The notes: a model not told the origin generated them from the letters alone. DNA of 64,000 nt from Alphaproteobacteria bacterium (GCA_963422565.1 OY730228.1:2889492-2953491), one strand, 5' to 3'; positions 14,892-39,754 are shown, counted from the stretch's first letter. Made by a program: numbers and translations.

Positions 14892-16238
14892 GTGGCGGTT
14901 TACCGGGATTGCCGCGGGCTCGCGGTCACCGTGGCGGGCGAGGGCGCGCTGCGAAGCTTCGATGCGACGGTCCGGTCCTTTCTCGGGTTGCGGCGGGACA
15001 CCGGCGATCATCTAAAGGCCGCGCTCGCGGCCGATGGCGGATTCCTGCTCGCGCACGTGCTGCGCGGCTATTTCATGCTGCTGTTCGCCAACCGCACCCT
15101 GATCGGCCGGGCGCGTGCCTCGCTCGCTGCCGCCGAAAGCGCTCGCGCGGCGCATGGCGCGACCGAAAGGGAACGCGGGCATCTGATGGCGCTCGACGCC
15201 TGGCTCGACGGGCAGCCGCGGCAGGCTCTCGCTTGCTGGACGCAGATTCTGGACCGGGATCCGCGCGATATCGTCGCGATCAAGCTCTCCGAATACTGGA
15301 ACTTCTATCTCGGCGACAGTGCCGGCATGTGCGCGGTCCAGGACCGGGTCGCGCCGGCCTGGGACGAGGGCGTACCGGAGTTCGGCAAGCTGCTCGGCAT
15401 GTCGGCCTTCGCCCTCGAGGAGGCCGGCGCCTATGCCGAGGCGGAACGGCGCGGGCGCCGGGCGGTGGACATCGACCCGACGGATCTGTGGTCCTGCCAT
15501 GCGGTCGCGCATGTGTTCGAGATGACTGGCCGGCGTCGGGAGGGGATCGACTGGATCTCCGGGCTCGGCCCCAACTTCCGCGACTGCAACGCGATGGCCA
15601 ACCATCTGTGGTGGCACCGTGCCCTGTTCTGGTTCGATCTCGGCCGCTTCGAAGAGGCGCTCGCGCTCCATGACGCGGAGATCGAACCCGAAAACGCAGT
15701 CGAGTATCTCGACATCTGCAACGCGGTCTCACTGCTGTGGCGGCTGGAGGAGGAGGGGGTCGATGTCGGCGCTCGCTGGTCCGCGCTGGCCGACCTCGCC
15801 GCGGCGAGGGCCGGCGACTTCCAGCTCGTCTTCGCCGATGTCCATTACGCGATGGCGCTCGCCGCCGCCGGACGGACGGAGGAGCTGGACCGCCTGCTTG
15901 CCGAGGCCGACGCCTTCGCCGGCGGCTCCGAGGACATCGCGGCCGGGATCATGGCGGAGGTCGGGCTCGCGCTCTGCCGGGCCGCTGCGGCCGCTCGCGC
16001 CGGCAGCTGGGGCAAAGCGGTCGCGCTCCTGTATCCACGCCGCAAGGCGATCCGGAAGATCGGCGGCAGCAACGCGCAGCGCGACCTGTTCGCGCGCATG
16101 CTCCTCCATGCGGCGGGGCGCGCCGGGCGGTCGGAGCTCGTGGCCGCGCTGGCCGCCGAGCGCCACCTCTCCAAACCGTACAGCCCGCCGACCGACGCCG
16201 TCTATGCGCGGTCGAACGCCGGACCGGGGCGCGGCTGA
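14892..16238 (+). CDS. tetratricopeptide-repeat protein (TTC38-like)
   Basis: The 448-aa ORF has a GTG start. Its Ala/Leu-rich helical repeats and WW/HRALF motifs are typical of TPR-family proteins. Confidence 0.7.
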   Translation: MAVYRDCRGLAVTVAGEGALRSFDATVRSFLGLRRDTGDHLKAALAADGGFLLAHVLRGYFMLLFANRTLIGRARASLAAAESARAAHGATERERGHLMALDAWLDGQPRQALACWTQILDRDPRDIVAIKLSEYWNFYLGDSAGMCAVQDRVAPAWDEGVPEFGKLLGMSAFALEEAGAYAEAERRGRRAVDIDPTDLWSCHAVAHVFEMTGRRREGIDWISGLGPNFRDCNAMANHLWWHRALFWFDLGRFEEALALHDAEIEPENAVEYLDICNAVSLLWRLEEEGVDVGARWSALADLAAARAGDFQLVFADVHYAMALAAAGRTEELDRLLAEADAFAGGSEDIAAGIMAEVGLALCRAAAAARAGSWGKAVALLYPRRKAIRKIGGSNAQRDLFARMLLHAAGRAGRSELVAALAAERHLSKPYSPPTDAVYARSNAGPGRG

Positions 16239-17410
16239 AGCCCGGCATGCGCCGCGACCTCGATCAGCGCCTCGTCCCGCATTCGCCCGGCCATGATCGA
16301 GACTCCGGTTGGCAGCCCATCGGCCTCGCCCAAGGGAAGATGGACCTGGGGGACGCCGGTCAGCCCGGCCGGCGCGGTCAGGCGGAGCGCGGCCGCGCGG
16401 AAGGCCTCAAGCTCCTCGGACTCCGCATCCCGCCGCGGCGGCAGGACCGCGGTCGGCAGGCACAGAAGTGTCCCGTCGTCGAGCAGCGCCTCCACATGCG
16501 CCGCCGCCTCCCGGCGCGACCGCCGCATCGCCGCGGCGGCGGCCTCGTCGACGCCGGCGGCCCAGGCAAGCCGGTCGGCGATGGCCGGGCTCAGATCCGG
16601 CCGATGGGCCTCCACCCAGGGGACGAGGGCCGCCTTGATCTCGCTCGCTTGGACGATCCGGAAGATGTCGGCCCATCGCGCCAGCCCCTGCGGCGCCAGG
16701 ACGACGGGCTCGGGGCCGGGGCAGCCCAGCGCGTCGGCGATTCTGTCCGTGAGGACGCGCACCTCCCGCGCGACCGGGGCCGGCGCGGCGTCGAGGGCAT
16801 CCTCGGCGATAAGCAGGCGCCTCGTCGGCGCCGGCGGGTGCCAGCCGGCGATCAGGGCGCGGCCGGCGCGGGCGAACGCCGATGGATCGGCGGCGAACCA
16901 GCCCACGACATCGAAGCTCGGGGCGAGGGCGAAGACCCCGGCGGTGGTGAGCCGCCCATGGCTCGGCCGGGCGCCGTAGAGCCCGCAGAACGCGGCGGGA
17001 ATGCGGACCGAGCCCGCGCAATCTGTGCCGAGCGCGATATCGGCGTCGCCCGCGGCCACGGCGACCGCCGAACCGCAGGAGGAGCCGCCGGGCAGCCGAT
17101 CCGGCGCCCGCGGGTTGATCGGGTCCCCATCATGGCGGTTGGTGCCGTTCAGGCTGTAACAGAGCTCGTCGCAGACGGTCCTGCCGACCAGCCGGGCACC
17201 GGAAGCGAGCAGCGCCCGGACCGCCGGCGCGTCGGTTTCGGCCGGCCGCGCATGTGCCCGCCATGTCGGCTGGCCGACCCCGGTGACGCGGCCGGCGAGG
17301 TCGAACACATCCTTCGCGGCGAAGCCGAGACCGGTCAAGGGACCGGACGGAGCGCCCCCGCGCCGATAGTCGCGATCGTGCAGGAAGGCGTTGAACCTGT
17401 CTTCCACCAT
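16202..17410 (-). CDS. amidase (amidase signature family)
   Basis: The sequence has GGSSCGSAVAVAAGDADIALGTDCAGSVRIPAAFCGLYG, the amidase signature with the Ser-cisSer-Lys region. Its 3' end overlaps the convergent TPR gene by 37 bp. Confidence 0.85.
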   Translation of the reverse strand: MVEDRFNAFLHDRDYRRGGAPSGPLTGLGFAAKDVFDLAGRVTGVGQPTWRAHARPAETDAPAVRALLASGARLVGRTVCDELCYSLNGTNRHDGDPINPRAPDRLPGGSSCGSAVAVAAGDADIALGTDCAGSVRIPAAFCGLYGARPSHGRLTTAGVFALAPSFDVVGWFAADPSAFARAGRALIAGWHPPAPTRRLLIAEDALDAAPAPVAREVRVLTDRIADALGCPGPEPVVLAPQGLARWADIFRIVQASEIKAALVPWVEAHRPDLSPAIADRLAWAAGVDEAAAAAMRRSRREAAAHVEALLDDGTLLCLPTAVLPPRRDAESEELEAFRAAALRLTAPAGLTGVPQVHLPLGEADGLPTGVSIMAGRMRDEALIEVAAHAGLQPRPGPAFDRA

Positions 17411-17528: not shown

Positions 17529-18266
17529 ATGGCTCGCGTGATCGTCACCGGCGCCGCGAACGGGATCGGGCGCGCCTGCGCGCGCGACATGGCGGCGGAT
17601 GGCAACAAGGTTCTCGCCGTCGACCTCGACGAACGGGCGACGAGGGCCGCCCATCCGGACGCCGGCGGCAACCTCGTCTTCGAGGCCTGCGACGTGAGCC
17701 GTGCCGAGGACTGCGCGGCGGCGGTCGCGGCGGCGCTCGAACGCTTCGGTGCCGTGGACGCCTTGCTCCATTTCGCCGGGATCCACACGACCCGGGTCTG
17801 GGAGGAGGCGACTGCCGAAGAGTTCAACCGCGTTCTCGAGGTCAACGTCACCGGGTCGTTCCTCATGGCCCAGGCCGCGGCTCGCCCGATGGTCGCCGCT
17901 GGCAGAGGAGTGATCCTGTTCACCGCTTCGTCCATCGTCCATGCGGGGGGCGTCGGCGGCAGCGGGCGCGGCGGCCCTGCCTATGCGTGTTCGAAGGCGG
18001 CGATCATCGCTCTCACCCGGTCGTTGGCGCGGGCCCTCGGGCCGCAGGGAGTACGCGTCTGCGCGGTGGCGCCCGGTGCCACCGTGACGCCGATGACCGC
18101 CGGCTATACGGAGGCGCACTGGGCGCATGTCCGCTCCAGTGCTGCCCTCGGCCGGGAGGGGGATGCCGAGGATATCGCCGATGTTGCGCGGTTCCTGATC
18201 TCCGATCGGGCCCGCTACGTCACCGGCGAGATCGTGAACGTGAACGGCGGCGTGTCCTTCGCATGA
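17529..18266 (+). CDS. SDR-family oxidoreductase
   Basis: The sequence has VIVTGAANGIGRA...YACSKAAIIALTRSLA, the TGxxxGxG and YxxxK motifs. Confidence 0.9.
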   Translation: MARVIVTGAANGIGRACARDMAADGNKVLAVDLDERATRAAHPDAGGNLVFEACDVSRAEDCAAAVAAALERFGAVDALLHFAGIHTTRVWEEATAEEFNRVLEVNVTGSFLMAQAAARPMVAAGRGVILFTASSIVHAGGVGGSGRGGPAYACSKAAIIALTRSLARALGPQGVRVCAVAPGATVTPMTAGYTEAHWAHVRSSAALGREGDAEDIADVARFLISDRARYVTGEIVNVNGGVSFA

Positions 18267-19524
18267 GCGCGGCCGGTCGGCGGAAGCGGCCGGGCGCGTA
18301 AGGGGACGGGTCGATGTCGCCGTCGCGCCCGGCGATCAGATCGGCGACCAGCCGGCCGGTGACCGCCGCCATGGTCAGCCCTAGATGGCCATGCCCGAAA
18401 GCGAGGACCGCACGGTCCGTCCCAGGGGCGATGCCGATCACCGGCATGCTGTCGGGCATCGACGGGCGGTGCCCCATCCATTCCGCGCCGTCCTGGATGT
18501 CGAGATCGGGGACGAGCCTTCGCGCCATCGCCCCGAGCATGCGGGCGCGGCGGTAGTCGGGCGGCGCGTCCAGCGAGGCCATCTCGGCAGTGCCGGCGAG
18601 ACGGACGCCCTGCGTCATCGGCACGATACCGAAGCGATGGTCGCCGGCCATCACGGGAAGCCGGAGCGCGACACCGGGCGACGGCAGCATCAGATGGTAG
18701 CCGCGCTCGGTTTCGAGGGGCACGCGCGCGCCGAGCCGCGCGGCGAGACGCTTCCCGAACGCCCCGGCCGCCAGGACCAGGCGGTCGACCTCCCGCCGCC
18801 CGGCGGAAGTGACGATCGCGGCCGGCCCGTCCGGGCCGATTTCGATATCGCGCACCTCCTCGCGAAGGATCGCTCCGCCGCCCCGGAAGATGGCGTCCGC
18901 GAAACGCCGCGACAGCGCGAGCGGGTCCCTGACCATCAGGCAGTCCGGGGAAAACACCCCGCGAACGACCTCGCGCGTCAGCGCGGGCTCGAGCTGACGC
19001 ATTTCCGACGGGCCGAGCTCCTCGAGGGGAATGCCCCGCCTGCGCCTCAGCGCGTGTTCGGACCGGGCGGCTTCGAACGTTTCCAATCTGCGATAGGCGT
19101 AGAGGATACCGGTGGGCCGGAACAGATCCTCCGCACCGGCGGCGCGCAGCAGCGGCGCGTAGGCGTCCCAGGCGTGGTCGAGCAGGCCGGCGAGGGCGAA
19201 GGAGATCTCCTCGACACGGCCGGGCCGCGATGCCGCCGCGAAGCGGATCAGCCAAGGCGCGAGTCGCGCCAGATGGTGCCAGCGGACGACCAGCGGCCCC
19301 TCCGGGTCGAGCAGCATCGCCGGCGCCTTGCGGAGAATACCGGGCGTGGCGAGCGGTACGCAGGCGTCGACCTGGATCATCCCGGCATTGCCGTAGGATG
19401 TGCTCTCCCCGGGCGGCCCGCGGTCGATCAGCGTAACCCGGTGACCGTCGCGCAACAGCGAAAGGCCTGCGGCGAGGCCGACGATCCCGGCCCCGACGAT
19501 CGTCACGTCGCGAGGTTGGGTCAT
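18220..19524 (-). CDS. FAD-dependent oxidoreductase, D-amino-acid dehydrogenase (DadA) family
   Basis: The sequence has VTIVGAGIVGLAAGLSL...NAGMIQVDACVPLATPGILRKAPAMLLDPEGPLVVRWH..., a DadA-like dinucleotide-binding fold. Confidence 0.8.
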   Translation of the reverse strand: MTQPRDVTIVGAGIVGLAAGLSLLRDGHRVTLIDRGPPGESTSYGNAGMIQVDACVPLATPGILRKAPAMLLDPEGPLVVRWHHLARLAPWLIRFAAASRPGRVEEISFALAGLLDHAWDAYAPLLRAAGAEDLFRPTGILYAYRRLETFEAARSEHALRRRRGIPLEELGPSEMRQLEPALTREVVRGVFSPDCLMVRDPLALSRRFADAIFRGGGAILREEVRDIEIGPDGPAAIVTSAGRREVDRLVLAAGAFGKRLAARLGARVPLETERGYHLMLPSPGVALRLPVMAGDHRFGIVPMTQGVRLAGTAEMASLDAPPDYRRARMLGAMARRLVPDLDIQDGAEWMGHRPSMPDSMPVIGIAPGTDRAVLAFGHGHLGLTMAAVTGRLVADLIAGRDGDIDPSPYAPGRFRRPAALMRRTRRRSRSRSRR

Positions 19525-19537
19525 CGCTTCGGGCGCT

Positions 19538-20536
19538 TCACAGGGCCAGCAGAGCGCGGGCGTTGTTGCCGTAGATGTCCGCGCGTTCGGCCTCGCTGCA
19601 GCGCAGGCCGTCGATGACCGAGATCGTGTCCCGGATCAGGATCCGGCCGCCCTCCATATCGAACGGGCAGTCGGTGGCGAACAGCGAGCGGCCGGCACCG
19701 AAGAAATCGAGGCCGCACTGGCTGGCTTCCCTGGCGCCGAACATCGCGGTGTCGACGTAGAATTCCTTGAAGTATTCGATGGCGGGCCGGGCGAGCGCCT
19801 CGCGCAGCGGGCCGTAGCTGGCCTCGTCCGACTGCGAGGACCGACCGTCCCAGTGCGGGGTGATGCGGCCGCCGGCATGCGGGATATAGGCGCCCCAGTG
19901 ATGGGCGAGGACCTTGAGATTGGGGAGCTTGTCGAACAGGCCCGAGAACACGATTCGAGCCATCGCCGCGCTGGTCTCGTAGGCCCAGCCGAGACCCCAG
20001 AAAATCTCGAATTTGGAGACATCCTCGCCCAGATAGTCGGGATGCGACATCGGCCGCGCGGGATGGAGGAAGATCGGCCGGTCGCGCTGCGCCATCCGCT
20101 CGAACACCGGGAAGAAGGCCGGATCGTCGAGCGCGCGGCCGTTCACGTTGGAGTGGACCTGGAGGCCGCAGGCGCCGAGTTCGCCGACCGCGCGGTCGAT
20201 CTCCGCGACCGCGGCGTCGGGGTTGTTCATCGGTGGGCTCGCGAGGAAGCTCGGGAACCGATCCGGATCGGCGCGACACATCGCCGCCATCCCGTCATTT
20301 GCGGCGCGGGCGAGCGCGGGGGTTTCGTCGGGTCCGCCGAGAATATCGATGGGGGGTTGCGACATCGAGATGATCTGCTGCAGGTCGCCGAACTCATCGA
20401 GCAGGCGTTTCCGCGCGTCCATGTCGTAGAGCGTCGGGATCGAGAGCCAGCGCGCGACCGCCTTCTTGGGCATTCGCCGCTCCAGCGTGTCGATGACGCT
20501 CTTCGGAAATACGTGATTGAACACGTCGAGATGCAT
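19538..20536 (-). CDS. amidohydrolase-2 family protein (ACMSD/LigW-like metal-dependent decarboxylase or hydrolase)
   Basis: The sequence has MHLDVFNHVFPKSVID...PIFLHPARP...HHWGAYIPHAGGRITPHWD...FATDCPFD, the TIM-barrel amidohydrolase-2 motifs. Confidence 0.75.
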   Translation of the reverse strand: MHLDVFNHVFPKSVIDTLERRMPKKAVARWLSIPTLYDMDARKRLLDEFGDLQQIISMSQPPIDILGGPDETPALARAANDGMAAMCRADPDRFPSFLASPPMNNPDAAVAEIDRAVGELGACGLQVHSNVNGRALDDPAFFPVFERMAQRDRPIFLHPARPMSHPDYLGEDVSKFEIFWGLGWAYETSAAMARIVFSGLFDKLPNLKVLAHHWGAYIPHAGGRITPHWDGRSSQSDEASYGPLREALARPAIEYFKEFYVDTAMFGAREASQCGLDFFGAGRSLFATDCPFDMEGGRILIRDTISVIDGLRCSEAERADIYGNNARALLAL

Positions 20537-20611
20537 GGCCGGGTCTCCCTCGCCGACGGGTAGGGCGCCGATTCTGCCGCGCGCGGACGGACGGGTCCAA
20601 TCGGCCGGAGG

Positions 20612-21598
20612 TCAGCGCACGCCGGCGTCGGCGCTCCGTCCGAGCCCTGCGTTCTCGATGGCCGGCGCGATGGCCGACGGATTGACCGGCGCCATGAGAT
20701 GCGCGCCGGCGACGCCCGGGATCTCCGCGAGCCGCTGGATCAGTTCGGCGCAGATCGCGATTCCCTCGGCCTCGGGATCCGCGGCGCCCTCCATCCGATC
20801 GATCAACGCGTCCGGGATCGTCACCCCCCAGAGCCTGTCGCGCATCCAGCGCGCCGAGCGCGCCGAGGCGAGCGGGCCGAGCCCGATCAGAATGAACAGC
20901 CGTTCCGCGAGACCGAAATCGGCGAGGCGTCCGACATAGCGCCCAATCAGGCCGATATCGAAGCAGAGCTGAGTCTGGACGAATCGGGCACCGGCGTCCA
21001 ACTTGCGACGGAGCGAGTCGGGCCGCCAATCGGGCGGCGGGTCGATCGGTGTATCGGCGGCGCCGATGAAGAAGCGGGGCGGACTGTCGATCTTCCTGCC
21101 GCCGGGCAGGACCCCCTCGTCGCGCATCCCGGCCGCGATGCGCGCGAGATCGACGCTTTCGAGATCGAAGACCGGCTTGGCGTTCGGCTGGTCGCCGGCG
21201 GCCGGATCGTCGCCGCGCAGGATCAGCAGGTTGTGGATGCCGAGCGCCGAGGCGCCCAGGAGATCCGCCTGGAGCGCGATCCTGTTGCGGTCGCGGCAGG
21301 TGAACTGCAGGACGGGCTCGATGCCGTCCGCCCTGAGAAGCGCGGCGGCAGCGAGGCTCGAAAGATGGACCCGGGCGCTCGCCCCGTCGGTTACGTTGAT
21401 TGCATCGACGCGGCCGACAAGGGGGCGGGCCCGGGCGAGGAGGGCGTTCTTGCCCCCGGTGACCGGGGGCGCGACCTCGGCGGTGAGGGCGAACCCGCCG
21501 CCGGCCAGCCTCCGGGCCAGCGCGCTCTCTGTCGGAAGCGCCGCCTGCGGCCGCGCGGTTTCAATCGCGCCGCCGCGAGACGACGAAGGATTCGTCAT
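20612..21598 (-). CDS. methylenetetrahydrofolate reductase family protein (MetF-like)
   Basis: The 328-aa ORF has FALTAEVAPP...VDAINVTDGASARVHLSSLAAAALL...EPVLQFTCRDRNRIALQADLLGASALGIHNLLILRGDDP, a MetF fold. Confidence 0.75.
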   Translation of the reverse strand: MTNPSSSRGGAIETARPQAALPTESALARRLAGGGFALTAEVAPPVTGGKNALLARARPLVGRVDAINVTDGASARVHLSSLAAAALLRADGIEPVLQFTCRDRNRIALQADLLGASALGIHNLLILRGDDPAAGDQPNAKPVFDLESVDLARIAAGMRDEGVLPGGRKIDSPPRFFIGAADTPIDPPPDWRPDSLRRKLDAGARFVQTQLCFDIGLIGRYVGRLADFGLAERLFILIGLGPLASARSARWMRDRLWGVTIPDALIDRMEGAADPEAEGIAICAELIQRLAEIPGVAGAHLMAPVNPSAIAPAIENAGLGRSADAGVR

Positions 21599-22970
21599 GG
21601 AACCAGAGTCCTCCGTTGGCGCTCAGTACGTCGCGGGTAGCTTTCAGGTAGAAGCTGTCAGAGACCGCCTCGTCGAGGCGCTCGTCCTCGATCTGGGCGA
21701 CATAGATGGCAGCGTTCCATGCCGCGAACAAGGTCGAGGTTCCGATATTCGACCCCTCGATCTCGGTCGGCAGGGTGTGCATGTCGTAGCGGAAGATCGC
21801 CCGTCGATCCGAATAGGCGTTGTATTTGAGGTCGCGCCGCGTTTTGCCGATCTCCGCCTTTAATGTCTTCAACAGCAGATGACGGTCGGTCCGGAAGGGC
21901 TGCTCCTCCGGCCAGATCCGGCGAATGATCTCCATGCCGGGATCGCCGCCGCAGGACTGGATGCAGAGCAACCTGCCGCCCGGGGCGAGGCTCCTGGCCA
22001 ACGGCGTGAGAACCCGCCGCACCTTGAACTCAGCCGGCATCCGCGCGCGGTAGGGCTGGGAGGCGATGATCAGGTCGTAGTCGGCCATCGCCCGGCCGGG
22101 TCTCGGGATGACCCCGTCGAGCAGGAATTTGTGATCCTCCCGGTAGAGGACCAGGACCGAGGGGCGGACATAGAGCGGATTGCCCGTCCTGGGGCTCGAT
22201 CGGACACGCCAACTCTCGGACAGCAGCGGCTGGAGCGACGAGATCTGTTCGTGGAACTCGTGCGCGGTGTTCCCCGACAGCGGGGTGTCCATCCAGTTCA
22301 GCGCCGCCGCCGCCCGCATCGTGCGCGGCGTCAGACCGGGCGCTTCGGTGTAGTGGAGATTGGTGACCACGAGGACCGTCGCCGGATGCTCGAAGAAGCG
22401 GTCGGACATCTTCTCGAGGCTGAGCCTCACGTCCTCGAGAGAGATCTCCTTGCCGACGATATAGAAGGGCAGGGTCGGGAACCGCCGGTGCATCCGCCGC
22501 ATGACGCCGGTCAGCACCGTGCCGTCGCCCATTCCGGCATCGAAGAGCTTGAGCGCGGGGGGGTGGGGCTGCACCTGGCCGAGCTCCATGCCGGCGCGCT
22601 CGGCAACCACCCATTTTTCGCTGCAGGTGTTGACGAACATCAGATATTTCTGACGGTTGTCGTAGAAGCGAAAGGCGGTCCGGTCGGCGCCCCGCGTCTG
22701 GCCCTCGCGCGGCGTCGGCTCGGCGGTGGGAGCGGTCGGCGCATCTCCGTCGGGCGCCGCGCTGTTGTCGGCGAGATAGCGCCGGACCTGCGAGATTTCT
22801 TCGGCGGCGGCCGCTGTGCCGCCGCGCAGCCGGCTCAGGAACGCGTCGTCGTCGAGCGCCTGCTTGCCGAAGGCCCGCGCGTCGAGACCGCGGTCCCGGC
22901 AGAAGGCCTCGATATCCGAGATGAGTCGTTGCCGTTCATCCATGACACCGTCCCGAATAGCCGTCGACAC
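21561..22970 (-). CDS. hypothetical protein with Rossmann/SAM-methyltransferase-like motifs
   Basis: The 469-aa ORF starts MSTAIRDGVMDERQRLISDIEAFCRDRGLDARAF, then has an Ala/Pro linker. Its core carries LFDAGMGDGTVL (motif-I-like), DLIIASQPY and LAPGGRLLCIQ. It overlaps the downstream metF-like start by 38 bp. I did not recognise a family. Confidence 0.6.
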   Translation of the reverse strand: MSTAIRDGVMDERQRLISDIEAFCRDRGLDARAFGKQALDDDAFLSRLRGGTAAAAEEISQVRRYLADNSAAPDGDAPTAPTAEPTPREGQTRGADRTAFRFYDNRQKYLMFVNTCSEKWVVAERAGMELGQVQPHPPALKLFDAGMGDGTVLTGVMRRMHRRFPTLPFYIVGKEISLEDVRLSLEKMSDRFFEHPATVLVVTNLHYTEAPGLTPRTMRAAAALNWMDTPLSGNTAHEFHEQISSLQPLLSESWRVRSSPRTGNPLYVRPSVLVLYREDHKFLLDGVIPRPGRAMADYDLIIASQPYRARMPAEFKVRRVLTPLARSLAPGGRLLCIQSCGGDPGMEIIRRIWPEEQPFRTDRHLLLKTLKAEIGKTRRDLKYNAYSDRRAIFRYDMHTLPTEIEGSNIGTSTLFAAWNAAIYVAQIEDERLDEAVSDSFYLKATRDVLSANGGLWFHDESFVVSRRRD

Positions 22971-23232
22971 CGGTCATTATGGCGAAGCGCCGCGCTAGGC
23001 CAACGCCGCCGTGCCGCGGCCGGCGACGAAGGACCGGTTGGACCGGATGCAAGGGCTTGGCCTGGAACCCACCATCGGCCGCGAGCGCGATCCTCCGCTT
23101 CCCGGAGCGCGCCACGCACGACGCGCGCAGCCGGGTCGCCAAGAGCCGTTGACAAGCTCCCCGACAGAAGCATATATTGCGAATTAGTCCAATGAAATCA
23201 GTAGATTGTAATCCAGAAAACCTTCTGATCGA

Positions 23233-24576
<1,344 letters not shown>

Positions 24577-24622
24577 TGGCGACGATGTCCGGCGCCCTAC
24601 GCCCCGCCGGCGGGGTCGAAGA

Positions 24623-25273
24623 ATGTCGCGGCTGACCCCCGAGATCCTGCTACAGGCATACGCGGTCGGCCTGTTCCCGATGGCGGAGCGGCGCGACGAC
24701 CCGACCCTCTACTGGATCGACCCCGAGAAGCGCGGCATTCTTCCTCTCGATGCCGTCCACATCCCCCGCCGGCTGAGCCGCACCGTGCGCGGCGGTGTCT
24801 TCGAAGTCCGCTGCGACACGGCCTTCGATCGAGTCATCGCCGCCTGCGCCGCGCCCGGGGTGAACCGCGGCGAGACCTGGATCAACGACGAGATCATTGA
24901 GCTCTACGGTGCGCTGCACCGGATGGGGCGCGCCCATTCCGTCGAATGCTGGCGGGACGGCGGTCTGGCAGGCGGGTTGTACGGCGTGTCGCTCGGGGCC
25001 GCGTTCTTCGGCGAGAGTATGTTCTCGCGGGTCCGCGACGCGAGCAAGGTCGCACTCGTCCATCTGGTCGCGAGGTTGCGCCTGGGCGGTTTCAGACTGC
25101 TCGATGTCCAGTTCGTGACCCCGCATCTCGGCCGGTTCGGCGCCGTGGAGCTGCACCGGTCGGGCTACCGTCAGATCCTCGCCGACGCCCTCGACCGCAG
25201 CGCGACCTTCTACCGGGAGCTTCCCTCCTCGGCACTCGCCGCGGTCCTGCAGCCGACGACCCAGACGTCGTAG
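24623..25273 (+). CDS. aat: leucyl/phenylalanyl-tRNA--protein transferase
   Basis: ATG at 24623 gives [51 protein letters not shown]...[30 protein letters not shown], the Aat signature. The 22-aa ORF-track N-extension is Arg-rich. Confidence 0.9.
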
Positions 25274-25598
25274 ACGGGGTGTTCCAGACTGGACAGCGCC
25301 GGGCTCGACGCGAACATCCAGCCGCTGAAGACGCGCTTCGGCGGCCGGCGCTGGCGCAGCTCGTCGATTTCCAGAAAGGCGGTCGTCTCCGGAGGCTGCT
25401 CGGGCGGTCTTTCGCGGCAGTAGCGGGCGGCGATCCTGAGCGTGCCGAAGTCGACGACACCCTCGACGGCGCCTCGATGGTGAAGATCCGGGCCGTCACC
25501 TTGTCCAGACCTCGCAAGACCGCGACGCGGGTCTCGGCCGCAACCGGCCAACAGGCCAGCGCCGCCAGAACGGAAAGGACGATCCCCCCGCCGTTCAT
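25210..25598 (-). CDS. DUF2155-family secreted protein, interrupted by a 1-nt frameshift near 25465-25472
   Basis: ATG at 25598..25596 overlaps the upstream methyltransferase stop as ATGA. It gives a signal peptide [44 protein letters not shown] in one frame. The protein continues as [41 protein letters not shown]... in the +1 frame, down to 25210. The junction lies in gcgcc|gtcgag. Confidence 0.6.
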
Positions 25599-26380
25599 CC
25601 GCCTTCGCCACAGCTGGGCTTGAAGGCGCGGAACCGCAGCCGCACATAGTCCGCGACCCAGCCCGCCGCCGGATCGTAGATCTGCGGGCGCAGGATCTCC
25701 CGCACCCGGTCGACCACCGCCGGGCGGTCCGCGGCGTCCAGCGCCAGCAGCACCCGTTCGGCAAAGGTCTCCAGCCAAGCGGCGATGTCGCCCGGCAGCC
25801 TGGTCGGCCTCTCGATCAGCTCGATCGACGCGACCGCGAAGCCTCGGGCCTCGAGGCGGTCGCGATACTCCTCGACGGAGGGGAAGTACCAGCGGAACAG
25901 CGCCGCCGCGTCGACTCCGCAGGGCGCCGCGGCGGTCTCCAGCGCCTCGCGGATGCGCCGGACATTGCCCTCGCCGCCCATCTCTCCCACCACCCTGCCG
26001 CCCGGGCGCAGAGCGCGCCAGATGCCCTCGATCACCGCGTCGGGCCGGGCCATCCAGTGGAGGGCGGCGTTGGTGAAGACCGCGTCGAAGGCCGCCTCGA
26101 AGCGCAGATCGTGCCCATCGACGACACGAGCATCGAGGCTGCGCGCGCGGGCCGCGGCGACCTGCTCCGGGCTCGCGTCCACGCCGACGACCGCCTTGCA
26201 CCGCCCGGCGAGCTCCGCGGTGAGCGCGCCGTCCCCGCATCCCAGATCGAGGATCTCCTCATGCGGGCGCGGTTCCAGCAGATCGATCAGCGGTGCGCCG
26301 AGCTCGGCGACGAAGCGTGCATTCCGCGCATAGCGGTCGGGGTCCCAGGACTGATCGGAAGCTCGTTCATGTCTCGTCAT
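25595..26380 (-). CDS. class I SAM-dependent methyltransferase (trans-aconitate methyltransferase-like)
   Basis: The sequence has ILDLGCGDGALTAEL...VVGVDASPEQV...FDAVFTNAALHWM...LRPGGRVV, methyltransferase motifs I to III. Confidence 0.88.
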   Translation of the reverse strand: MTRHERASDQSWDPDRYARNARFVAELGAPLIDLLEPRPHEEILDLGCGDGALTAELAGRCKAVVGVDASPEQVAAARARSLDARVVDGHDLRFEAAFDAVFTNAALHWMARPDAVIEGIWRALRPGGRVVGEMGGEGNVRRIREALETAAAPCGVDAAALFRWYFPSVEEYRDRLEARGFAVASIELIERPTRLPGDIAAWLETFAERVLLALDAADRPAVVDRVREILRPQIYDPAAGWVADYVRLRFRAFKPSCGEGG

Positions 26381-39457: not shown

Positions 39458-39754
39458 ATGTCCATCGGGATTGGATTTGGGAGGTTTCCCCCGATGGCTC
39501 GTGGCGTTGGCCGTCCGCTGGCGGCCTACGAGGCCAAGGTAGCGGCGCGCGCCGGGCGCAAGGGCCGGGCCAAGGGCAAGCGGCCGAAGCCGCCTGGGGG
39601 GACGCCGCGCGGGGACGAGCAGAGCAACCTGAGCGACCCTGACAGCCGGCTGATGCGCAAGAGCAGGAGGCACGAGTTCCGCCCGAGCGGGGCCGGGACA
39701 GCGGTGAAGGAAACCGAGCCCAAAGTCCGACAGACTGATAGGGCATGTTCTTGA
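39458..39754 (+). mobile_element. IS1182/IS5-superfamily transposase N-terminal fragment (relic)
   Basis: The fragment reads ...RPLAAYEAKVAARAGRKGRAKGKRPKPPGGTPRGDEQSNLSDPDSRLMRKSRRHEF..., the conserved (T/S)DPDSR(L/I)M(K/R) region of IS1182-family transposases. It is only about 98 aa and decays before the DDE domain. Confidence 0.65.

Follow-up and report, generated by a model that had tools for sequence, protein, structure and literature searches.

What do the four co-directional minus-strand genes between positions 18220 and 22970 of an alphaproteobacterial genome segment do, and do they work as one unit? The segment, 64,000 nucleotides from Alphaproteobacteria bacterium (GCA_963422565.1, OY730228.1:2889492-2953491), is called the window below. 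The original prediction, made from the sequence, was that these genes form a candidate novel one-carbon (C1)-linked catabolic module, composed of an unclassified 469-amino-acid (aa) protein, here called X, a methylenetetrahydrofolate reductase (MTHFR) homolog, an amidohydrolase, and a flavin-dependent oxidase. We found that the conserved unit is X plus an MTHFR, with or without a core MetE-type gene, and not the four-gene row; the C1-linked part of the prediction holds for the X-MTHFR pair, whereas the amidohydrolase and oxidase genes are not conserved neighbors. The explanation that we favor, tentatively and with somewhat less than even confidence, is that X binds S-adenosylmethionine (SAM) and/or S-adenosylhomocysteine (SAH), may be catalytic as well, and, as the product of the first gene of a methyl-tetrahydrofolate (methyl-THF) operon, regulates that operon itself by a logic like that of SahR in an unrelated protein family.

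Gene X occupies positions 21561 to 22943 on the minus strand. Its open reading frame (ORF) reaches mechanically to a GTG at 22970, which gives the 469 aa originally proposed, and yields 460 aa when read from the ATG at 22943. The ATG is almost certainly the true start, because X homologs begin with MDE..., an identical database protein (P0001) is 460 aa long, and a promoter-like element lies too near the GTG. This element, TTGGCC-16-CATAAT (positions 22976 to 23003, minus strand; 9 of 12 matches, a consensus match only), ends 5 bp upstream of the GTG, so that a transcript would begin at or after the GTG and leave no room for a ribosome-binding site. The length aside, the protein was as unclassified as claimed. 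It matched no family in Pfam or NCBIfam at an E value of 0.01 or better, including the curated methyltransferase families (Methyltransf_*, SABATH PF03492), and no PDB sequence at an E value of <1, whether a single sequence or a profile was used; tblastn against 72,556 plasmids likewise gave no match. The X homologs formed more than 8000 clusters, of which the top 120 were 62 to 75% identical to X over 97 to 99% of its length, and two shorter entries were 81 to 83% identical over 80% of the length. Labels among the top 120 were "hypothetical protein" and, once, "SAM-dependent methyltransferase." An exhaustive HMMER search over 1.84 billion representatives returned 1268 hits (50% clustering), and since these were mostly fragments of the X family, X is isolated in sequence space. 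Literature searches found no paper or curated model describing X-like proteins. That X might be a spurious ORF was ruled out by the GC content of its third codon positions (GC3), its conservation, and its confidently predicted fold. X is an unnamed protein family without a Pfam or NCBIfam model that occurs in Alpha- and Betaproteobacteria and beyond, with 57 to 75% identity between bacterial classes.

The gene neighborhoods of X were compared in 80 genome loci with X homologs, which sampled Rhodospirillales-like and other Alphaproteobacteria, Hyphomicrobiales, Burkholderiales, some Gammaproteobacteria, and one Myxococcota metagenome-assembled genome (MAG), and in nine more loci obtained by contig look-ups. 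When hidden Markov models (HMMs) of both MTHFR types described below were used, an MTHFR-type ORF was found directly after X and on the same strand in 65 of the 81 loci with at least 900 bp of downstream sequence, with gaps of -49 to +288 bp; three more loci had an MTHFR nearby in another arrangement. The MTHFR of the window type, type a, followed X in 14 of 83 loci searched by tblastn with the window proteins. ORF clustering uncovered a second, sequence-distinct family in the same slot in 55 loci, and this family proved to be a divergent MTHFR, type b (PF02219, 3.6e-11). The two types form separate sequence clusters, and a type-a tblastn query misses type b. Because two non-orthologous MTHFR families fill the slot in different lineages and both have the catalytic residues, X is tied to MTHFR activity and not to one particular protein.

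Methionine synthase-like genes were the other recurrent partners. In approximately 15 Xanthobacteraceae-type loci, the order was thiolase, pcaH, pcaG, X, MTHFR, and two to four MetE-like genes, with X, MTHFR, and the MetE-like genes in one direction. The four loci nearest to the X of the window (72 to 75% identity) have no adjacent MTHFR. In L084 and L085 (approximately 74% identity), X is divergent from an operon (L084:260-2954 and L085:4178-7834) containing a MetE-like gene, a GATase/Peptidase_C26 (gamma-glutamyl hydrolase-type) gene, and a FAA-hydrolase gene, a placement typical of a regulator; the L085 operon also holds a class II aldolase. In L004 and L005, a MetE-like gene is near X. The genes folD, purU, fhs, metK, and ahcY were not among the conserved neighbors of X in the related loci. 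The recurrence of MTHFR and MetE-like partners points to the methionine/SAM methyl branch, not to amine catabolism.

The type-a MTHFR homolog of the window is a 328-aa protein encoded at positions 20612 to 21598 on the minus strand. Its initial identification was upheld by its match to PF02219 (1.3e-31; 110.5 bits versus a cutoff of 24) and by the presence of equivalents of E. coli Glu28, Asp120, and Gln183 (reference sequence taken from NC_000913), which are also kept in both MTHFR types. The protein carries the motifs TAEVAPP, NVTDGA, FTCRDRN, LRGDDP, and VQTQ. Its PDB relatives are the Thermus thermophilus and human MTHFRs (6e-9 to 3e-8), and its best NCBIfam match is to the C-terminal half of the bifunctional YitJ-type PRK08645 (9e-58, below cutoff). 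The 38-bp overlap with X was also as first described, given an MTHFR start at ATG 21598, for which there is no alternative canonical start; homologs of type a begin within approximately 20 bp of the X stop codon. The type-b proteins, with the signature SLEATRP...GGD...GYPEGHP...SQF, match only positions 62 to 226 of PF02219 and replace the window type in Hyphomicrobiales and Burkholderiales (e.g., L032:9476-10426 and L075:9409-10335). They may be proteins of the ACIAD1783/PP_4638 type, for which a previous study had no explanation (PMC7857596).

MetE-like genes were present in at least 22 X loci in one to four copies, often as two to four tandem paralogs (e.g., L003:10446-13914, L044:2783-7220, and L073:10431-14857). 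They encode single-domain homologs of approximately 370 aa that match NCBIfam PRK06520 (474 bits versus a cutoff of 313) and are without the folate-binding N-terminal domain. All four Zn ligands and the three homocysteine-binding residues, as defined in PMC7857596, were intact in 33 of 35 aligned rows, one of which was the E. coli MetE reference. Because the homocysteine-binding residues are kept, these neighbors are probably methionine forming. No MetE-like gene was found in the window by tblastn.

Alignment of X with its homologs divides the protein into a 60-residue N-terminal domain (N-domain), a variable linker of 25 to 60 residues, and a strongly conserved domain of approximately 375 residues. 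The N-domain (residues 1 to 60; positions 22764 to 22943, minus strand) is the helical extension noted initially. It is putatively DNA binding and has four helices, residues 3 to 18, 22 to 30, 35 to 40, and 47 to 59, predicted by AlphaFold2 (AF2) with a predicted local distance difference test (pLDDT) score of 82 to 90. Its putative recognition stretch reads DDDAFLSRLRGG in the window versus NDGKFVGRLRDG in the family consensus. The linker (residues 61 to 88; positions 22680 to 22763, minus strand) is rich in Ala, Pro, and Gly, is predicted to be disordered (pLDDT 21 to 39), and varies in length and sequence among homologs (alignment columns 75 to 130). A full-length AF2 model built from 30 close homologs had a pLDDT of 54.8 and was usable for the N-domain only. 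Residues 85 to 460, modeled from a more diverse alignment, gave a pLDDT of 90.3 and a predicted template modeling (TM) score of 0.90. In this model the C-terminal domain (C-domain; residues 89 to 460, positions 21564 to 22679, minus strand) is a Rossmann-like alpha/beta structure with the seven-stranded methyltransferase topology, that is, a predicted class I SAM-methyltransferase fold into which a cap is inserted. The profile HMM and structure searches proposed along with the original prediction gave this fold and no known family.

The Gly-rich and acidic motifs that had first suggested a methyltransferase are both present and conserved. In class I methyltransferases, the Gly-rich loop after beta1 usually binds SAM, and the acidic residue that terminates beta2 usually ligates the ribose hydroxyls. 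The corresponding elements of X are motif I, FDAGMGDG (residues 134 to 141; positions 22521 to 22544, minus strand), in the loop that follows model strand 47-51, and motif II, GKEIS (residues 164 to 168; positions 22440 to 22454, minus strand), whose acidic residue ends beta2. The two motifs are invariant or nearly so in two alignments of X homologs (A1 and A2), even among homologs of 35 to 40% identity. ASQPY (positions 22050 to 22064, minus strand) directly follows the strand YDLIIAS (C-domain model strand 205-211), and A294, S295, Q296, P297, and Y298 are invariant in A1; ASQPY, which comes after beta4, appears similar to the (D/N/S)PP(Y/F) motif IV of N-methyltransferases. The best fold match of X is an N-methyltransferase. 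The many invariant polar residues outside the SAM site include YREDH, SQPYRAR, and AAWNAA, and the C-domain is 57 to 82% identical across proteobacterial classes. Because the capped substrate pocket is heavily conserved, X may also be a working small-molecule methyltransferase, probably an N-methyltransferase. An ordinary class I methyltransferase (Methyltransf_11/25/12) is encoded 2.6 kb from X, at positions 25595 to 26380 on the minus strand; X, unlike that protein, matches none of these three models.

Words over-represented in the 250 bp that precede X in the related loci resolved into the palindrome [TG]GGG[AC]-N4-[GT]CCC[AC], e.g., GTGGGATATATCCCAC. It was accompanied by additional half-sites, CCCA[CT], and by a TTGTGGTTGAC element that includes a -35-like TTGAC. 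Across the 1.17 Mb of loci, the palindrome was found 79 times, and 64 of the sites, distributed over 53 of 87 loci, were no more than 300 bp upstream of X; the strict form TGGGA-N4-TCCCA occurred 23 times, in every case upstream of X. It was found with either MTHFR type and in Alphaproteobacteria, Betaproteobacteria, and the Myxococcota MAG (examples among L001 to L083 are L001, L003, L011, L049, and L066). Since it spans MTHFR types and phyla, X is the only gene that is constant alongside it, and the N-domain of X would be the obvious candidate for the factor that binds it. The number of upstream half-sites varied with the N-domain: the 77 loci encoding NDGK in the putative recognition stretch of this domain had at least two and mostly three to nine, the four loci encoding GDGR or NDGT had one or two and no palindrome, and the window, which encodes DDDAF, had none. 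Control by a SAM or B12 riboswitch was rejected, as Rfam searches of the whole window and eight related loci revealed neither a riboswitch nor any other RNA.

According to the explanation we favor, X would consist of two modules, a helical N-domain acting as a tethered DNA-binding module and a class I methyltransferase-fold domain that binds SAM and/or SAH. X would head an operon in which a dedicated methylene-THF reductase gene is second and core MetE-type homocysteine methyltransferase genes often come further along. It would sense the methyl status of the cell through its SAM/SAH pocket and bind the palindromic operator in its own promoter, thereby setting how strongly the enzymes for 5-methyl-THF synthesis and for methyl transfer from it to homocysteine are expressed; it is in this direction that we infer control to run. 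Several observations weigh against such a role. The N-domain gave no helix-turn-helix (HTH) or ArsR match in Pfam at E values up to 10 and no PDB profile match, and hhalign against five XRE HTH domains returned a probability of 0.7%, making its HTH likeness a resemblance only. The co-variation of N-domain and operator comes from one clade, and hence from one evolutionary event, and is suggestive rather than statistical. In the window, the intergenic region between X and accC has no inverted repeat and no palindrome, and the single one-mismatch match to the palindrome, at position 39478, is at chance level; the regulatory claim comes entirely from the relatives, the window itself being without this regulatory element. 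The operator could also belong to another factor. The C-domain is conserved far beyond the needs of a ligand sensor, in a pattern that fits an enzyme. Some X homologs are without the N-domain (e.g., P0130 in L088), and a 38%-identical homolog, P0143, lies within a catabolic operon whose stop and start codons overlap. Given the missing operator and the divergence of the putative recognition helix, the regulatory half of X may have been altered or lost in the lineage of the window.

The same enzyme-like conservation raises the possibility, which we regard as unlikely, that the role of X is enzymatic alone, as a SAM-dependent methyltransferase of small molecules (probably an N- or carboxyl-methyltransferase) that acts on a common metabolite. 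MTHFR and core MetE would then supply the methyl group, from CH2-THF through CH3-THF, methionine, and SAM to the product of X, and the N-domain would be a docking or accessory element. Such a role would account for the strong conservation of the whole C-domain, including the NPPY-like SQPY after beta4, and for the existence of homologs with no N-domain, but it leaves unexplained the X-specific palindrome, the divergent X/MetE-like layout, and the tandem arrays of two to four MetE-like genes. The partner enzymes fit with methyl group supply: both MTHFR types keep the catalytic residues, the window MTHFR has, in the HMMER alignment, a Gly at the site of the NADH-blocking Leu of the oxidizing type-4 enzymes, the MetE-like neighbors retain the homocysteine-binding residues expected of methionine-forming enzymes, and folD, purU, and fhs are not conserved neighbors, unlike in oxidative demethylation clusters. 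We can, however, name no acceptor substrate, and neither metK nor ahcY is a conserved neighbor.

A third possibility, which we consider improbable, is that the methyl groups flow toward the folate pool. Here, the core MetE paralogs would load environmental methyl groups, e.g., from methoxylated aromatics, onto homocysteine, X would pass them from SAM to N5 of THF or to an intermediate, and the partner MTHFR would oxidize 5-methyl-THF to methylene-THF, providing a cobalamin-independent analog of a demethylase plus type-4 MTHFR. A more specific form, in which X is, for example, a SAM:THF N5-methyltransferase that funnels methyl groups from lignin-derived methoxy-aromatics into C1 metabolism and also autoregulates the operon through its N-domain, is doubtful to a like degree. 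To our knowledge, no SAM-to-THF methyltransferase has been described, and the route would consume ATP for every methyl group. The unusual conservation of X would follow if both of its substrates were universal cofactors, and their tight coupling in translation suggests that X and MTHFR share an intermediate. The location of X, MTHFR, and one to four core MetE genes after pcaHG and thiolase in approximately 15 Xanthobacteraceae-type loci would fit this route, but the pcaHG link is restricted to this one lineage, where a promoter-sized gap separates pcaG from X, and most X-MTHFR loci have no MetE-like gene. Also in line with this route are the window gene that follows MTHFR, a homolog of LigW/gamma-resorcylate-type aromatic decarboxylases, and the distant X homolog P0143, whose operon adjoins a gene for a VanA-like Rieske oxygenase as well as an AraC regulator. 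In that operon (L089:1282-6443), the X homolog stands between YjgF and ADP-forming acyl-CoA synthetase genes, followed by SDR (short-chain dehydrogenase/reductase), tautomerase, isochorismatase, enoyl-CoA hydratase (ECH), and amine oxidase genes, and there is no MTHFR gene.

Demethylase-MTHFR coupling of this kind is documented for LigM, DesA, CmuAB, and Dmt (PMC11868366). The signature of type-4 MTHFRs consists of Leu48-Pro49 in loop beta2-alpha3, Arg78, and Pro268-Phe269 in loop beta8-alpha11, and in these CH3-THF-oxidizing enzymes the Leu blocks NADH (PMC11868366). When aligned by HMMER to the T. thermophilus MTHFR, the window MTHFR has T-D-G-A versus the T-Y-G-A of types 1 and 2, with a Gly where the NADH-blocking Leu would be; in the MAFFT alignment, this loop falls elsewhere. 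No S6MTHFR-like PDB hit was obtained for the window MTHFR at an E value of 1e-3 or better, and the type-4 motifs were not confirmed. The Gly at the NADH-blocking position and the absence of folD, purU, and fhs from the conserved neighbors argue mildly against an oxidative role. X itself as a LigM/GcvT-type (LigM/DesA/DmdA) demethylase was rejected on the basis of its fold.

The remaining two genes of the row encode a 332-aa Amidohydrolase_2 protein (positions 19538 to 20536, minus strand; Pfam, 8.5e-34) and a 434-aa DAO-family FAD oxidoreductase that is DadA or glycine-oxidase-like (positions 18220 to 19524, minus strand; PF01266, 3e-61). The nearest solved relatives of the former are 3ij6 (7.5e-31), gamma-resorcylate decarboxylase (1.6e-27), LigW (2.2e-27), IDCase (2e-24), and ACMSD (8e-22), which probably places it in the ACMSD/non-oxidative decarboxylase branch and not with amide or amine hydrolases; its proposed ACMSD family membership was right in this broad sense. 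The latter belongs to the DAO superfamily at that level only (208 bits to PF01266) and is not DadA proper, since it scored 199.7 bits versus a cutoff of 383 for NF001933 and 121.1 versus 494 bits for PRK12409; its PDB match is glycine oxidase (4ysh, 9e-26), and glycine and sarcosine oxidases are its nearest solved relatives. No amidohydrolase or DAO gene directly adjoined X in the 83 X loci searched by tblastn. Weak amidohydrolase homologs (28 to 33% identical) were found approximately 3 to 7 kb from X in L001/L002, L007, L008, and L060, and a DAO homolog was near X in 1 of the 83 loci, 6.6 kb away. Conversely, a metagenome scan seeded with the window amidohydrolase gave 62 loci (32 to 54% identity, all but one at least 44%), none of which contained DAO, MTHFR, or X. 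Neighborhood conservation, the check proposed for the four-gene module, therefore failed for the amidohydrolase and DAO genes, which were not co-conserved with their neighbors in either the X loci or the amidohydrolase loci, while X and MTHFR stayed together. These two genes are lineage-specific local additions that lie outside the conserved unit.

That the four genes nevertheless work together in the catabolism of an N-methylated amine or amino acid, with the flavoprotein oxidizing the N-methyl group and the folate pool receiving the C1 unit, is very unlikely: their shared direction, close spacing, and lack of terminator-like sites would permit co-transcription in this genome, and both the solved relatives of the DAO protein and the N-methyltransferase fold match of X would suit such a role, but the combination is unconserved, the amidohydrolase is from the decarboxylase branch, the surrounding genes are housekeeping genes, and, unlike in sarcosine and dimethylglycine oxidases and dehydrogenases, the GcvT-type THF-binding domain (PF01571) is absent from all four proteins in Pfam searches. 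The analogy with N-methyl amine demethylation drawn in the original prediction is lost with the DAO gene on which it rested.

As a physical arrangement, the row was correctly described. The ORF scan of the window recovered the four co-directional, tightly spaced genes and the convergent SDR gene outside the unit (positions 17529 to 18266, plus strand; Pfam adh_short_C2, 2e-56), and all five are real. Each minus-strand gene has a coding signature, with a GC3 of 0.85 to 0.87 and a second-position GC content of <0.56 in a genome of 69% GC, and alternative ORFs on the opposite strand across the row matched no families. MTHFR and amidohydrolase are separated by a 75-bp gap and amidohydrolase and DAO by a 13-bp gap, with no intervening terminator-like site found among the four genes. 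The 3' ends of DAO and SDR share 47 bp (18220 to 18266), and no terminator-like hairpin was found between them. On the downstream (3') side of the row, SDR is joined by another non-conserved neighbor, an amidase (positions 16202 to 17410, minus strand) that scores above the NCBIfam equivalog cutoff of PRK08310 (435.9 versus 391 bits); in four of the amidohydrolase-seeded metagenome loci, an amidase homolog (40 to 41% identity) lies approximately 1.5 kb away. The wider surroundings (murA-like, hisG, accC, aat, and MlaD) are housekeeping genes and not a catabolic island. On the other side of X, positions 23233 to 24576 (plus strand) encode an AccC-type biotin carboxylase with three Pfam domains and no biotin-carboxyl-carrier gene ahead of it. 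It has a strong promoter-like element, TTGACA-18-TATATT, at positions 23149 to 23178, and its 3' end overlaps the leucyl/phenylalanyl-tRNA-protein transferase gene (positions 24557 to 25273, plus strand) by 20 bp.

X is tied to the committed step of methyl group synthesis, and knowledge of its role would help explain how methyl groups are controlled or routed in many soil and marine bacteria. It could also explain the function of the divergent MTHFR paralogs and the methyl source of the single-domain MetE homologs in aerobes. A purely SahR-like sensor role for X would make for a modest but useful annotation; if it is true that X is an enzyme that joins the SAM and folate pools, it would carry out a new reaction in central C1 metabolism. 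The conserved palindrome provides a ready experimental handle.

Among known systems, the precedent for the role that we favor comes from SahR and SamR. In SahR, as reportedly described by Novichkov et al. in 2014, a methyltransferase-like ligand domain is combined with an N-terminal module that binds DNA. SahR, which responds to SAH, and the related SamR recognize palindromic sites and regulate metF, metE, and metH; the samR gene lies near methionine synthase genes (PMC4239095). X shares with them a methyltransferase-like domain joined to an N-terminal, putatively DNA-binding module and a position beside metF/metE/metH-type genes; in its relatives, X is also linked to a palindrome that would be its operator, with MTHFR and methionine synthase genes as putative targets. 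It differs in having no sequence relationship to them and no ArsR/HTH or Methyltransf Pfam match, in its ligand domain of approximately 375 aa with a large cap and far greater conservation, in its long, disordered linker, and in its linked operator, TGGGA-N4-TCCCA versus their ATC-N10-GAT type (PMC4239095).

The pairing of a methyl-handling protein with a dedicated MTHFR is also seen in LigM-MetF-LigH of Sphingobium SYK-6, CmuAB, and Dmt (PMC11868366), and, in some lineages, X-MTHFR adjoins protocatechuate catabolism genes. X, however, has a class I methyltransferase fold and not a GcvT/aminomethyltransferase fold, its partner MTHFRs do not resemble S6MTHFR in sequence (no such PDB hit at an E value of 1e-3 or better), the HMMER alignment showed no Leu-Pro signature, and no ligH, folD, or purU accompanies the pair. 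The core methionine synthases MesA to MesD resemble the X-linked MetE-like proteins in being single-domain core enzymes that raise the same question of methyl source (PMC7857596). The X-linked proteins fall in PRK06520 and have no DUF1852/MesX or corrinoid protein nearby, and they are linked to an MTHFR, whereas MesD is MetF independent (PMC7857596). For MetE-like O-demethylases and PP_4638/ACIAD1783, literature searches gave nothing beyond PMC7857596 and PMC11868366.

With YitJ (PRK08645), the likeness is in the MTHFR, as that of the window is closest to the MTHFR half of YitJ (9e-58, profile positions 306 to 594) and in both cases such an MTHFR is physically linked to a methyl transfer protein of the methionine branch. 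In YitJ this is a fused zinc-dependent homocysteine S-methyltransferase domain (PF02574), versus a separate class I-fold protein for X, and the window MTHFR reached 195.7 bits versus a cutoff of 453 for YitJ (NF006396), with the N-terminal half unmatched. Finally, X shares its predicted fold with the capped small-molecule class I methyltransferases (histamine N-methyltransferase 1jqd, the mycobacterial fatty-acid O-methyltransferase 5f2k, the SABATH enzymes 1m6e and 2eg5, and TmtA 5egp), along with a Gly-rich motif I, an acidic residue that follows beta2, and a helical cap covering the active site. X is 8 to 13% identical to these enzymes, with a TM score of approximately 0.48, is without Pfam membership, and has, in addition to the N-domain, a beta-rich segment inserted between beta3 and beta4. 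The class I fold itself is not new, and there is precedent for a methyltransferase-like protein next to metF.

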